From Pyrinomonadaceae bacterium (lineage in GTDB: Bacteria; Acidobacteriota; Blastocatellia; Pyrinomonadales; Pyrinomonadaceae), in assembly GCA_963817025.1 (NCBI GenBank), contig CAWFML010000001.1, forward strand, positions 285,332 to 349,331: a stretch of 64,000 nucleotides of DNA, written 5' to 3'. Numbering within the stretch: position 1 is the first letter of the stretch; every line of letters starts with the position of its first letter. The position numbers and the translations under genes were made by a program. The notes beneath the pieces are model-generated. The model had not been told where the DNA came from. It did not search any database and saw only the letters and a list, made by a program, of their open reading frames with translations. Shown in pieces: positions 14,923 to 23,881 of this stretch.

Positions 14923-14951
14923 TGGACTCAAGATTTATTATCTGCTCATGC
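14923..14951 (+). promoter_or_regulatory. putative sigma70-type promoter upstream of hsp20-clpB-hsp20 (TTGACA-17nt-TATTAT)
   Basis: TTGACA at 14923-14928 and TATTAT at 14946-14951 with a 17-nt spacer, ~90 nt upstream of the hsp20 ATG. Confidence 0.45.
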
Positions 14952-15042
14952 TCAGGAGCCGAAAGAACATCGAATTTTCCAGTTTTTCTTTTGGCTGGCG
15001 GTAAATTTTGATTTTTCTAAGAATTTTGAGGAGGAAGTTGAA

Positions 15043-15582
15043 ATGAGCATCGTTCGTTACGATCCATTCCGCGACTTACGTAGTCTTCAGGACGAGGTTA
15101 ATCGTCTCTTTTCCACTAATTTGACGCGCGCCTACGACGGCGACGAGGGCATCGCGCGCGGGGCCTGGAATCCGAGCGTGGATATTTACGAGAACAAAGA
15201 CCAGATCGTGCTCGAAGCGGAACTGCCGGGCATGAAGCGCGAGGATTTCGACCTTTCGATTGAAAACAACGTCATTACTCTGCGCGGCGAGCGCCGCTTT
15301 GAGAAAAAAGACGAGAGCGACAATTATCACAGGGTCGAGAGGGCTTATGGCTCTTTCACGCGCTCGTTTACGCTGCCGCAAACAGTGCAGGCCGAGAGCG
15401 TGACGGCTGAATATCGCAATGGCGTCCTGCGCGTCACCATGCCCAAGCGCGAAGAAGTCAAAGCGCGCCGCATAGAGATCGCTGGCGAAGCCAACGAAGC
15501 GAAGGGCGCGCGCACCATCGAAGCGAAAGCTGAAAACGCTGCCACCAAAGGCGAACAGTCAAGCTCTGCTACTGCTCGCTAA
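15043..15582 (+). CDS. Hsp20/alpha-crystallin family small heat-shock protein
   Basis: Alpha-crystallin domain (VDIYENKDQIVLEAELPGMKREDFDLSIENNVITLRGER...AEYRNGVLRVTMPK). A GGAGG ribosome-binding site precedes the ATG. Confidence 0.95.
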   Translation: MSIVRYDPFRDLRSLQDEVNRLFSTNLTRAYDGDEGIARGAWNPSVDIYENKDQIVLEAELPGMKREDFDLSIENNVITLRGERRFEKKDESDNYHRVERAYGSFTRSFTLPQTVQAESVTAEYRNGVLRVTMPKREEVKARRIEIAGEANEAKGARTIEAKAENAATKGEQSSSATAR

Positions 15583-15592
15583 TAGTCATTCA

Positions 15593-21253: not shown

Positions 21254-21350
21254 AAGGCAAAAGTAAAAAGGTAAAGGGCAAAAGTGAAGATATAAGGACT
21301 TATCAAGGCTGTTCTTCACTTTTGCCTTTTACCTTTTGCCTTCTTACTTA
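21254..21350. repeat. palindromic repeat, GGCAAAAG/GTAAAAG family (copy a), abutting the groEL stop
   Basis: ggcaaaagtaaaaaggtaaagggcaaaagtgaaga ...loop... tcttcacttttgccttttaccttttgcc. Confidence 0.85.
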
Positions 21351-21586
21351 TTTTGTTGGCAAGGCAGTTGCAGGTAAGCGATAATGCCTGTGGGTCATTG
21401 CATGGAAACGCAACGGCCCATGTGCCCCTCGCATCTAAACCTGGACTGTGGGACGTACAGCAAATTAGAAGCGAAAGCAATAGGGAGAAGGTCGAAACTA
21501 AAAGGTCAAACATTTGGCACACGCTTGACGCTTTGCTTGGCCCTTCATCGCTTCCGGGTAGACTCTAGCAAGTTGAGAAAAAAAGA

Positions 21587-23881
21587 ATGATAGATCTAGG
21601 GGCATATAAAGATAAATTCGGCGACAGCGGGCAGCGCATCCTTGAGAATGCGCTCAACGAATCACGCCGTCGCGATCAAAATTACGTATCGGTCGAGCAC
21701 ATCCTGCATGCGATGGTAAGCGAAGAGGCAGACCTTTTCAATTCCACGATGCGCGATCTCTCGATTGACCCGCGCTCGGTCAAGCTTCAGATCGAGCGGC
21801 GGCTTGAGTCGAGCCGCCAGCACGTCGGCAAAGGCTTTAAGATTGCGCCTGACACGACAGACCTTTTCAAGCGCGCGATGGAGCGCGCACGCGCACAGGG
21901 GCGCAAAACCATCGAAGCGACAGACATCTTCCTCGCGCTCTCGCAGGATGATCAAGGGCTATTCGTAGAGGTCTTGAGAGACCTCGGCGCGCAGCCTGAA
22001 GCGATTATCGAGAACGTCCGCGCACGCGTCCGCATACGCGAGCAGGAAGAAGAACAGTACAAGAAAAAATTCGAGCTGCCGCCGTATCTCAAACACTTTG
22101 GCGTCTCGCTGAACCGGCTGGCGCGGATGGACAAGATTCCTCCGACCATCGGGCGCGAGATGGAGATACAGCAGATGGTAGAGATTCTCTGCCACCGCGA
22201 GCGCGCCAACTCGCCCATGCTGGTGGGCGAACCCGGCGTCGGCAAGACGGCTGTGGTCGAAGGACTCGCGCGCCTGATAGAACTTGAGCCGGAAAAAGTT
22301 CCGGCACGCCTGCGCGGCTCTCATATCGTGCAGCTTCAGATGGGCGGACTCGTCGCGGGCACGATGCTGCGCGGCATGTTCGAGGAACGCATCAAGGGCA
22401 TCATTGACGAAGTCAAAGAGAAAGAAAATCTGATTCTCTTTATTGACGAAGCGCACACGATCATCGGCGCGGGCGCGGCCCTCGGCACATCCAGCGATGC
22501 TGCCAACATGTTCAAATCCGCGCTCGCACGCGGCGAGCTGCGTATCATCGGCGCGACCACCTTGACCGAGTACAAAGAATATATCGGCGAAGACGAAGCT
22601 TTAGCGCGTCGTTTCCGTCAGGTCAAAGTTGACGAGCCGACGCTGCTTGAAACCAGAGAGATTTTGCTGGGCCTGCGCCCGCGTCTCGAAAAGAATTATT
22701 CGGTGACGATTTCGGATGATGCAATCAACACTGCTTTGGAGATGGCTCCGAAGTACATACGCAACCTGCATCTGCCGGACAAAGCCATCGGCTGGCTCGA
22801 CACGGCTGCGGTCAAAGTTGAAATCAACGAGCCGCAAACTTTGGTCGTCAAGCCTGAGCATGTGATTGATGTCATCTCGCAGGAATCCAGAATTCCGCGC
22901 GACATGATTTTCCGCGACACCAATGATCGCTTCGCACACATGGAAGCGGATTTGGGCGGGCGCGTTATCGGCCAGAAGGAAGCTATCAAAGCCGTCGCGC
23001 AACGCCTGCGTCTGAACAAAGGCCCGCTCAAAGAGTCGCATTATAAGCCGGACGGCGTGCTGCTCTTTCTCGGCCCGACCGGCGTCGGCAAGACCGAGCT
23101 GGCGAAGGCCGTCGCGGAATATATGTTCGGCGACGAAGAGAAAATGGTGCGGATAGACATGTCCGAATATGGCGACGGCACTGTCGGCATAGAGAAACTT
23201 ATCGGCATGCCGCGCGGCATCGTCGGCTCAGAGCGCGGCGGCATCCTGACAGAACAGTTGAGGGAGAATCCTTATACAGTTCTCCTGCTCGATGAGGTCG
23301 AGAAGGCTTCGCCTTACCTGATGAATCTTTTCTTACAGGGGTTTGACGAAGGCTGGATGACGGACGGGCGCGGCAAGAAGGTTTATCTCTCGGACGCCAT
23401 CGTCATCATGACTTCCAATCTCGGCTCGGAGAGCTTTAAGAGATTCGAGAAGCCGCTCGGCTTCGGTCTCAAGACTTTGGGCGATGTCAAAGCCATCAAG
23501 AATGAAGTGCTGAAGGCAGCCGAGCAGAGATTCTCGCCGGAGTTTCGCAATCGCATAGACGAGATAGTCATCTTCTCGCCGCTGACGATGGATGAAGTCA
23601 GGCAAATTGCGCTGCTGCATCTGGAAAGACTGCGCAAGCAGATGGAGCGTCAGGGCAAGTACGTCGAAGTGACGGAACGCGCCATTGACAAGCTGACAGA
23701 GAAGGGCTTTAGCCCGACCTACGGCGCGCGTTTTCTCAAACGGCACATAGACGAGAAGGTCAAATTGCCGATTACGACTATGTGGAAGGGCGGCTCGCGT
23801 TTCCTGGTTGACACTGAAGACGGCGAGGTCGTCATCAAAGCCATTGACGATGTGACGGAAGTAAGCGAAGTAGTAAACTAA
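21587..23881 (+). CDS. ClpA/ClpC-like AAA+ unfoldase (two AAA domains, no M-domain), orphan
   Basis: Clp_N repeats, D1 Walker [16 protein letters not shown] and D2 Walker [13 protein letters not shown] with D1 joined directly to D2. A PLGFGL loop in D2 could be a ClpP-docking tripeptide. No clpS or clpP is nearby. Confidence 0.8.
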   Translation: MIDLGAYKDKFGDSGQRILENALNESRRRDQNYVSVEHILHAMVSEEADLFNSTMRDLSIDPRSVKLQIERRLESSRQHVGKGFKIAPDTTDLFKRAMERARAQGRKTIEATDIFLALSQDDQGLFVEVLRDLGAQPEAIIENVRARVRIREQEEEQYKKKFELPPYLKHFGVSLNRLARMDKIPPTIGREMEIQQMVEILCHRERANSPMLVGEPGVGKTAVVEGLARLIELEPEKVPARLRGSHIVQLQMGGLVAGTMLRGMFEERIKGIIDEVKEKENLILFIDEAHTIIGAGAALGTSSDAANMFKSALARGELRIIGATTLTEYKEYIGEDEALARRFRQVKVDEPTLLETREILLGLRPRLEKNYSVTISDDAINTALEMAPKYIRNLHLPDKAIGWLDTAAVKVEINEPQTLVVKPEHVIDVISQESRIPRDMIFRDTNDRFAHMEADLGGRVIGQKEAIKAVAQRLRLNKGPLKESHYKPDGVLLFLGPTGVGKTELAKAVAEYMFGDEEKMVRIDMSEYGDGTVGIEKLIGMPRGIVGSERGGILTEQLRENPYTVLLLDEVEKASPYLMNLFLQGFDEGWMTDGRGKKVYLSDAIVIMTSNLGSESFKRFEKPLGFGLKTLGDVKAIKNEVLKAAEQRFSPEFRNRIDEIVIFSPLTMDEVRQIALLHLERLRKQMERQGKYVEVTERAIDKLTEKGFSPTYGARFLKRHIDEKVKLPITTMWKGGSRFLVDTEDGEVVIKAIDDVTEVSEVVN

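Follow-up and report, generated by a model that had tools for sequence, protein, structure and literature searches.

Gene content of the chaperone locus

We analysed a 64-kb stretch of DNA, here called the window, from a Pyrinomonadaceae bacterium (Acidobacteriota), in which genes were called from an open reading frame (ORF) listing and profile searches. The window contains six co-directional chaperone and Hsp100 genes at 15043-23881, namely hsp20a, clpB, hsp20b, grpE, groEL and a clpA/clpC-like gene (clpA-like in the following), all of which had been recognized in a first-pass annotation of the same DNA and were recovered here (Table 1). We describe these genes and the elements around them, and conclude that the Pyrinomonadaceae most likely have here a heat-shock operon of the HspR type that is ordinary but has not been described before. 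The first-pass annotation missed an operator-like element that resembles the HspR-associated inverted repeat (HAIR), a separate promoter for clpA-like, and the tyrosine-less pore loops of the ClpA-like protein, which are the only unusual feature of the locus.

For comparison, relatives of the locus were collected by a scan with the ClpA-like protein, using one genome per species. The scan gave 80 loci, all from metagenome-assembled genomes (MAGs) of Pyrinomonadaceae or Acidobacteriota, with protein identities of 83-98%, and the sequence examined in the fetched loci of relatives amounts to 2.1 Mb. In every relative and every variant of the cluster, hsp20a is the first gene. The ClpB protein is canonical, as it passes its own equivalog model, contains the M-domain in the alignment, and has the pore loops AKYR and GYIG. 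The gene starts with the ATG at 15657, giving the N-terminus MRLDKF, while the mechanically delimited ORF begins earlier, with a TTG at 15636. The distance of only 14 nt between clpB and hsp20b (18252-18265 of the forward strand) had been taken as a sign of translational coupling. The short gap is real and is the shortest among the relatives. However, the tight coupling is not a conserved trait, since most relatives have about 100 nt with a hairpin at this site.

The GroEL protein is also canonical in sequence. It aligns over its full length with GroEL of E. coli (672 bits) and has kept the apical hydrophobic segments for binding of GroES and substrate, LLPVLE and ALATLVV, and it presumably needs GroES. 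The C-terminal tail is non-canonical, as had been pointed out before, in that it ends with MGGGEDYDY and not with GGM repeats, and GG[ED]DYD[YF] forms the end of all 37 GroEL tails recovered from the orthologues; the tail is specific to the family. The absence of groES next to groEL was borne out by tblastn searches, which gave no match in the window or in the fetched loci of the relatives. Likewise, E. coli queries for DnaK, DnaJ, ClpP and ClpS gave no match in the 64-kb window, in agreement with the description of clpA-like as an Hsp100 gene with neither clpP nor clpS nearby. The broader claim that the usual partners are lacking is correct within the window. Beyond it, however, the family has dnaK-dnaJ(-hspR) operons whose promoter and operator are the same as in the cluster.

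Table 1. Coordinates of genes and sequence elements at the chaperone locus. Positions refer to the window. Stems are uninterrupted.
Feature	Start	End	Strand	Description
Promoter/operator of the heat-shock operon	14912	14954	+	Conserved consensus, 51 loci
hsp20a	15043	15582	+	Small heat-shock protein, 179 aa, first cistron; PF00011, E 1.4e-25
Stem-loop hsp20a-clpB	15593	15640	+	15-nt arms
clpB	15657	18251	+	Disaggregase; TIGR03346, 1394 bits (cut-off 1232)
hsp20b	18266	18712	+	Further small heat-shock protein; 41% identity with hsp20a
Inverted repeat hsp20b-grpE	18709	18768	+	gtgacgtatgacagg / cctgtcacacgtcac; stem of at least 8 bp in 82% of relatives
grpE	18783	19481	+	DnaK nucleotide-exchange factor; PF01025, E 7.5e-37
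Long stem-loop grpE-groEL	19485	19596	+	Perfect 25-nt arms; stem of at least 8 bp in 68% of relatives
groEL	19628	21253	+	Group I chaperonin, GTG start; TIGR02348, 837 bits (cut-off 582)
Terminator-like long hairpin	21254	21349	+	Directly 3' of the groEL stop; dispersed repeat family
Candidate clpA-like promoter	21357	21385	+	Sigma-54-type -24/-12, overlapping TTGGCA-18-GATAAT (21356-21385)
Two invariant leader boxes	21405	21439	+	GAAACGCAACGG (21405-21416) and CGCATCTAAA (21430-21439)
clpA-like	21587	23881	+	ClpA/ClpC-like Hsp100, 764 aa; Clp_N, two AAA modules, D2-small domain
Terminator-like hairpin	23984	24082	+	3' of clpA-like
LolA-like gene	24118	24963	+	LolA-superfamily secreted protein, 280 aa, signal peptide, no Pfam hit

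A conserved promoter with a putative HAIR-like operator

A strong, near-consensus promoter is located upstream of hsp20a, with a -35 hexamer TTGACA at 14913-14918 and a -10 hexamer TATTAT at 14936-14941, separated by 17 nt. The view of the cluster as a stress regulon with its own promoter is supported, although the promoter had been placed at position 14923 and starts about 10 nt upstream of it. The controlling inverted repeat of chaperone expression (CIRCE) is absent, as was stated, and a search of the window that allowed up to 3 mismatches found no copy.

To describe the conservation of the promoter, we compared 51 genome loci that had been found through the ClpA-like protein, so that the sampling was independent of the motif. 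The consensus upstream of hsp20a is agACTTGACAa..ag.gACTCAa..tTTATTAT.c...cacGCTCA, and it occurs once per locus. The ACTCA in the spacer and the CTCA downstream of the -10 hexamer are as invariant as the two hexamers themselves. In the window, the first of these belongs to an operator-like element, CTTGACA-N7-ACTCAAG at 14912-14932, of which the right arm is placed in the promoter spacer, and the second corresponds to an invariant GCTCA at 14950-14954, near the presumed start of the transcript. The sequence ACTCA is present in all 51 relatives and is extended to a complete ACTCAA in 38 of them.

The published operator of HspR is CTTGAGT-N7-ACTCAAG (PMC6102357), with TTGAGY-N7-ACTCAA as the published minimal form (PMC2687793). 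The element in the window matches the right arm of the former at 7 of 7 positions, has exactly the same spacing, and matches the left arm at 5 of 7 positions. The two positions at which the left arm departs from HAIR double as part of the -35 hexamer. With up to 2 mismatches allowed, the element is the sole HAIR match of the window. A single match of this quality is also obtained in 20% of shuffled windows, so the match taken alone is weak evidence.

The conserved GCTCA usually either pairs with a downstream TGAGC or opens a strong 5'-terminal hairpin, as observed at 14950-14995 in the window and in the leaders of dnaK in four loci from relatives (L095, L170, L201 and L202). The pairing could represent a 5' stabiliser or a second, differently spaced pair of operator half-sites. 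A search for ROSE, fourU and other RNA families in the segment 12000-27000 gave only generic, miRNA-like long-hairpin hits in Rfam, far below threshold. We also considered an RNA thermometer in the hsp20a leader, where a U-rich stretch can pair with the Shine-Dalgarno sequence, and rejected it, as the fold is unremarkable (z 0.12) and there is no consistent sequestration in the relatives.

The putative operator is shared with dnaK operons that encode an HspR-like protein

A metagenome scan with the whole hsp20a promoter/operator pattern as query returned 120 loci. About 100 of these were hsp20a-clpB loci and nine had the pattern directly upstream of dnaK(-dnaJ). In three of the loci (L095, L162 and L170), dnaK and dnaJ are followed by a gene for a MerR-family protein of 127-132 amino acids. 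The best NCBIfam match of the protein in L095 (132 aa) is to HspR (NF047375, 97.8 bits), and the next family other than HspR scores 44 bits. Its close homologs are annotated as Pyrinomonadaceae or Acidobacteria. Two MAG contigs at NCBI that are labelled Pyrinomonadaceae contain dnaK-dnaJ-merR behind TTGACA-N7-ACTCAA, which is followed by TATACT or TATCAT and then by GCTCAA. In all, the operator precedes a dnaK operon encoding an HspR-like protein, which is the layout of an autoregulated operon, in five loci from relatives (L095, L162, L170, L201 and L202). The dnaK-dnaJ-hspR operons of the family contain no grpE, which explains why grpE appears as an orphan in the cluster of the window. A contig with a GC content of 68% (L092, 641-4196) has dnaK-hsp20-grpE-dnaJ behind the same promoter/operator pattern, and this type of operator thus extends beyond the Pyrinomonadaceae with their GC content of about 55%.

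Known HspR regulons include dnaK/dnaJ/grpE, clpB, genes for small heat-shock proteins (acr2, hsp20) and lon (PMC2687793, PMC6888292). The operon in the window and the dnaK operons together have the content of a known HspR regulon, with groEL in addition. In the literature that we searched, no paper on HspR in Acidobacteria was found.

The best explanation overall, and one that we hold to be probable, is that the five genes from hsp20a to groEL form an HspR-type heat-shock operon that makes up one half of a split regulon, with clpA-like as a separate unit. The near-consensus sigma-70 promoter would drive the operon, and the HAIR-like operator would be carried in its spacer. The repressor would be a MerR-type protein of the HspR kind, and its gene would be the third one in a dnaK-dnaJ-hspR operon that is located elsewhere and has the same operator. 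The analogy with Streptomyces and Mycobacterium suggests that the repressor may be placed on the -35 and spacer region in unstressed cells, and that the titration of DnaK by unfolded proteins may lead to its release. Both HspR binding at the operator and the feedback through DnaK are putative. The half of the regulon in the window would supply two small heat-shock proteins and ClpB for aggregates, along with GrpE and GroEL, and dnaK and dnaJ would be co-regulated from another site.

Several observations weigh against a split HspR regulon. The left arm of the operator is CTTGACA and not CTTGAGT, so that the true palindrome comprises only TTGA/TCAA, and the last positions of the right arm vary (AAC, AAG, AGA). 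The score of the HspR candidate, 97.8 bits, is just below the NCBIfam cut-off of 105. The 64-kb window encodes no MerR/HspR gene, and the hspR and dnaK genes were seen in related MAGs and metagenomes rather than in the genome from which the window is taken. Finally, the partners GroES, ClpP and ClpS were found neither in the window nor in the 2.1 Mb of sequence fetched from relatives.

An alternative is that the ACTCA and GCTCA motifs serve another repressor or an alternative sigma factor, or a 5'-terminal mRNA stem in the case of GCTCA, and that the presence of HspR in the dnaK operon is a coincidence. While the imperfect palindrome, the frequency of HAIR matches in shuffled windows and the predicted 5' hairpins of the hsp20a and dnaK leaders, in which GCTCA often pairs with TGAGC, are all compatible with this alternative, it does not account for a right arm and an N7 spacing that are identical to those of the published HspR operator, or for the location of the element in the promoter spacer, a region in which sigma-70 has no sequence requirement. 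The placement of the same element ahead of an operon that encodes an HspR-like protein, as in classical autoregulation, and the agreement in regulon content speak against it as well, and we consider it unlikely. The split HspR regulon provides a testable picture of heat-shock control in the Pyrinomonadaceae, an abundant but barely cultured family of soil Acidobacteria, with an HspR-type repressor, a defined operator and a regulon divided between two sites.

Intercistronic hairpins and the extent of the operon

The gaps between the genes contain strong stem-loops whose position is conserved while their sequence is not. When a stem was counted only if it had at least 8 bp without interruption, one was found between hsp20a and clpB in all 40 relatives tested for this gap (median 15.5 bp, z -4.2) and between clpB and hsp20b in 82% of relatives; the next two gaps are listed in Table 1. 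These stem-loops probably set different transcript levels along the operon, through partial termination or differential stability of the mRNA. The hairpin directly downstream of groEL is of another kind, with near-identical copies at 40574, 42656 and 57413, each right behind another gene. It belongs to a dispersed family of terminator-like repeats and marks the end of the operon.

Long intergenic hairpins with low-complexity arms of 25-50 nt are found throughout the window, typically right after stop codons, and are a genome-wide feature. They span 21254-21349, 40564-40678, 42656-42747 and 57413-57500, as well as 5205-5339 and 58633-58737, and further examples are located at 43338-43416, 45753-45850, 50107-50215, 55102-55220 and 63030-63158. 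The families of arms include AAGGCAAAAGTAAAAAGGTAAAAGGCAAAAGT, AAGGATGAAGGATGAAG and CGCAAAGGCGCAAAG, and related arm motifs are present in the intergenic gaps of the relatives. These dispersed hairpins look like terminator or stabiliser elements similar to repetitive extragenic palindromic sequences.

No conserved promoter-like words were identified in the internal gaps from hsp20a through groEL when the relatives were compared, and the only conserved promoters are the one at the head of the cluster and the one before clpA-like. We conclude that hsp20a-clpB-hsp20b-grpE-groEL is most likely one heat-shock operon. Two points count against this conclusion: co-transcription of the five genes is deduced only from the lack of other conserved promoter-like words and from the single operator per locus, and transcription could end at the long hairpin that precedes groEL.

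The heat-shock genes might instead be transcribed independently, as a loose neighbourhood brought together by chance or by selection for co-location and not as an operon. It would be consistent with such an arrangement that every intergenic gap contains a strong and potentially terminating hairpin, and that the middle genes come and go by lineage, as in hsp20a-clpB-clpA-like and hsp20a-hsp20b-grpE-clpA-like. However, independent transcription is difficult to reconcile with internal gaps that lack conserved promoter-like words, with only about 30 nt between the hairpin and groEL, with the 14 nt that separate clpB and hsp20b in this genome, and with the restriction of conserved promoters to the head of the cluster and clpA-like. 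A loose neighbourhood is thus very unlikely compared with a five-gene operon.

The locus is inherited within the family

The first-pass annotation saw a resemblance to horizontally transferred heat-resistance islands and suggested that codon usage be checked for anomalies. The conserved gene order, the flanking genes and the composition of the cluster all speak against a transfer. The order hsp20a, clpB, hsp20b, grpE, groEL, clpA-like and the gene for a 280-aa protein is found in essentially every sufficiently long locus among the approximately 80 species representatives. In the window, the neighbours are ordinary chromosomal genes, including thyA, folA, a PALP/CBS enzyme, oxidoreductases, an OPT transporter and histidine kinases, and no mobility genes (integrase, transposase) were found among the window genes. 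The GC content of the cluster genes is 0.56-0.61, as compared to 0.57 +/- 0.02 in the neighbours, and the GC content at third codon positions is 0.66-0.72 versus 0.68 +/- 0.04. The distances in relative synonymous codon usage are inside the range of the neighbours for the given gene length. The codon usage of the cluster thus matches that of its neighbours, an outcome that the first-pass annotation had itself named as one that would count against an island.

The same annotation was correct that the gene set differs from that of the islands with ClpG or ClpK. The ClpK and ClpG models gave 836-839 bits, which is far below the cut-off of 1900, while ClpB passes its own equivalog. Nor are any island genes of the ftsH, kefB, psiE or degP type present. 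We conclude that the six-gene cluster is a vertically inherited, family-wide core locus of the Pyrinomonadaceae, because of its synteny, its housekeeping flanks and its native composition.

The idea of a horizontally acquired protein-quality-control island that adds extra chaperone copies, of the type known as the transmissible locus for protein quality control (TLPQC) or the locus of heat resistance (LHR), can draw on the superficially similar order of a small heat-shock protein, an Hsp100 and a second small heat-shock protein, and on the presence in the window of groEL without groES and of grpE without dnaK, but it is largely refuted by a locus that is kept in place across the whole family and by the composition, flanks and gene set described above, and we give it next to no credence. 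A mobile heat-resistance island can thereby be removed as a false lead.

Variants of the cluster were observed in the metagenomes. One has the order hsp20a-clpB-clpA-like-LolA-like and lacks hsp20b, grpE and groEL, another has hsp20a-hsp20b-grpE-clpA-like, and a single locus is rearranged (modular or rearranged loci: L108, L133, L134, L139 and L158; L106; L122). What does not change across these variants is the head of the cluster, with hsp20a and the operator, and its tail, with clpA-like, the leader of clpA-like and the LolA-like gene. The LolA-like gene always follows clpA-like, including in the shortened variants. An AlphaFold2 model of its product (pLDDT 82.8) gave Foldseek matches to LolA3, NE2245, DUF1329 and RseB with E-values of about 4e-7, and the model resembles the LolA / LolB / RseB / DUF1329 fold.

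Upstream of the cluster, a divergent lrp-eamA pair is located at 13300-14771, which looks like an independent pair of a regulator and an exporter. A relationship to the cluster had been left undecided. The pair is unrelated, and it is located beside the cluster in only about one third of the relatives for which the upstream flank was recovered.

A separate transcription unit for clpA-like

Among the internal gaps, conserved sequence is confined to the one of 333 nt between groEL and clpA-like. The clpA-like gene is a separate transcription unit with a leader of about 200 nt, because it is preceded by the terminator-like repeat and has its own conserved promoter element and leader boxes.

The sequence TGGCAAGGCAGTTGC (21357-21371) contains a -24 GG and a -12 GC at the consensus spacing of sigma-54, and TGGCAAGGCAGTTGCA, which starts at 21357, corresponds to the sigma-54 -24/-12 pattern TGGCAC-N5-TTGCW. 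A match to [TC]GGC-N7-[AT]TTGC is present in about 66 of the 80 relatives, at a distance of 45-58 nt (mostly 47-49 nt) upstream of the first leader box. Most relatives also have a sequence that resembles an extended -10 element, TGnTATnnT; its equivalent in the window is GATAAT with TTGGCA 18 nt upstream. The assignment to sigma-54 is that of a candidate promoter and is drawn from conservation. Against it stand the extended -10 element, which offers sigma-70 as an alternative, and the number of matches to the sigma-54-type pattern in the window, which is not enriched (5 versus 3.8 expected). In addition, no gene for a Sigma54_activat enhancer-binding protein was found in the window, although it may be encoded elsewhere, and the relatives show no conserved sequence upstream of the -24 element that might be an activator site.

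Within the 2.1 Mb examined, the two leader boxes have no occurrence other than the one upstream of clpA-like. They are usually spaced by 15 nt, with a shorter or longer distance in some lineages, sometimes together with a duplicated first box. The boxes have no match to an Rfam family. A structured leader or riboswitch was considered and was not established, with a fold z of -0.23, a family alifold energy of about 0 kcal/mol and hairpins in the flanks that are specific to clades. A leader peptide across the boxes was rejected, since neither a start codon nor a reading frame is conserved.

The ClpA-like protein lacks the pore-loop tyrosines

The ClpA-like protein contains the Pfam domains Clp_N, AAA, AAA_lid_9, AAA_2 and ClpB_D2-small. 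The alignment confirms the earlier observation that this second Hsp100 has no M-domain. The protein reaches no equivalog cut-off (ClpA model TIGR02639, 613 bits versus 993; PRK11034, 444 versus 1350). Its best PDB matches are to ClpC for the D1 module (495 bits), and the alignment with ClpA runs unbroken through residues 22-741. In D1, the pore loop is AG-TMLR-G (T259-M-L261-R), which differs from the usual AG-x-KYR-G, and the D2 pore loop is GIVG (G544-I545-V-G) rather than the usual GYVG. Both TMLR and GIVG are found in all 81 ClpA-like orthologs, while the neighbouring ClpB proteins keep AKYR and GY[VI]G. A loop of the type that docks on ClpP, KPLGFG, is present with L624-G-F626 and has the length seen in ClpC, at a site where ClpB has a gap of seven residues. 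PLGF is conserved in 79 of the 81 orthologs. The ClpA-like protein probably docks on ClpP, considering its ClpA layout, its ClpC-like sequence and the LGF loop.

An exhaustive homolog search of 1.84 billion cluster representatives indicated that the ClpA-like proteins form a narrow subfamily. Full-length relatives have identities of 84%, 54% and 44%, and ordinary Hsp100s have identities of 37-45%. The distant relatives also contain GIVG or GVV loops and an xGF loop. Some of these tyrosine-less Hsp100s (L204-L207) are encoded in unrelated operons and are uninformative for the locus in the window. Two of them (L205, 4160-8733, and L206, 6916-11566; 43-45% identity) are located in a different conserved operon, with an overlapping or abutting gene for a 358-aa protein upstream, two small genes downstream and Trypsin_2 or YbjN genes nearby. 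This operon may represent a separate uncharacterised system.

Replacement of the tyrosine by alanine in either pore loop of ClpA abolishes the degradation of tagged substrates (PMC8666677). The tyrosine replacement in the ClpA-like proteins is kept throughout the 81 orthologs and in relatives down to approximately 40% identity. No mention of a GIVG pore loop was found in the literature searched. It is conceivable, although doubtful, that the protein represents an undescribed class of ClpP-docking Hsp100s with aliphatic pore-1 loops, acting as a low-grip translocase under its own sigma-54-type promoter and leader, separate from the HspR operon. The functional consequence of the lost tyrosines is a matter of speculation: a low-grip motor would feed only unfolded polypeptides, or those held by small heat-shock proteins, to ClpP and would spare native proteins. 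A tyrosine-less Hsp100 with an LGF loop is a natural experiment on how far AAA+ unfoldases depend on aromatic pore loops, and it deserves biochemical follow-up.

Comparison with known systems

The TLPQC and LHR islands, with the order sHsp20-ClpK/ClpG-sHsp, are similar to the locus in that a gene for a small heat-shock protein is placed on either side of the gene for an Hsp100 disaggregase. The Hsp100 in the window is, however, a bona fide ClpB, no accessory or mobility genes are present, and the locus has a native composition and is vertically inherited.

Stand-alone genes of the groEL2 type, for example the actinobacterial groEL2, also encode a canonical GroEL with a tail other than GGM and have no adjacent groES. 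The groEL gene in the window differs from these in that it is located in an operon with genes for small heat-shock proteins, ClpB and GrpE, and in that its control is apparently of the HspR type and not through HrcA/CIRCE.

The ClpA-like protein shares the Clp_N N-domain and two AAA+ modules with Walker A and B motifs with ClpC of Firmicutes, Actinobacteria and cyanobacteria and with ClpA of Proteobacteria, and it has a ClpP loop of the same length as ClpC, with LGF in the window protein. Unlike ClpC, it has no M-domain, and unlike both ClpC and ClpA, it has MLR and GIVG rather than KYR and GYVG in the pore-1 loops, and a candidate sigma-54-type promoter.

A close parallel to the five-gene operon is the HspR/HAIR regulon of Streptomyces, Mycobacterium, Deinococcus, Helicobacter and Campylobacter. 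As in that regulon, the dnaK operons of the relatives end with a gene for an HspR-like MerR protein and have their own operator-like element upstream, the HAIR-like element has N7 spacing and an ACTCAA arm and overlaps a strong promoter, and the putative targets include dnaK/dnaJ, clpB, grpE and genes for small heat-shock proteins. The system described here differs from the known ones in that it belongs to the Acidobacteriota, in that the left arm of the operator is fused with the -35 hexamer (CTTGACA), and in that grpE has moved from the dnaK operon into hsp20-clpB-hsp20-grpE-groEL, an operon that also includes a groES-less groEL.

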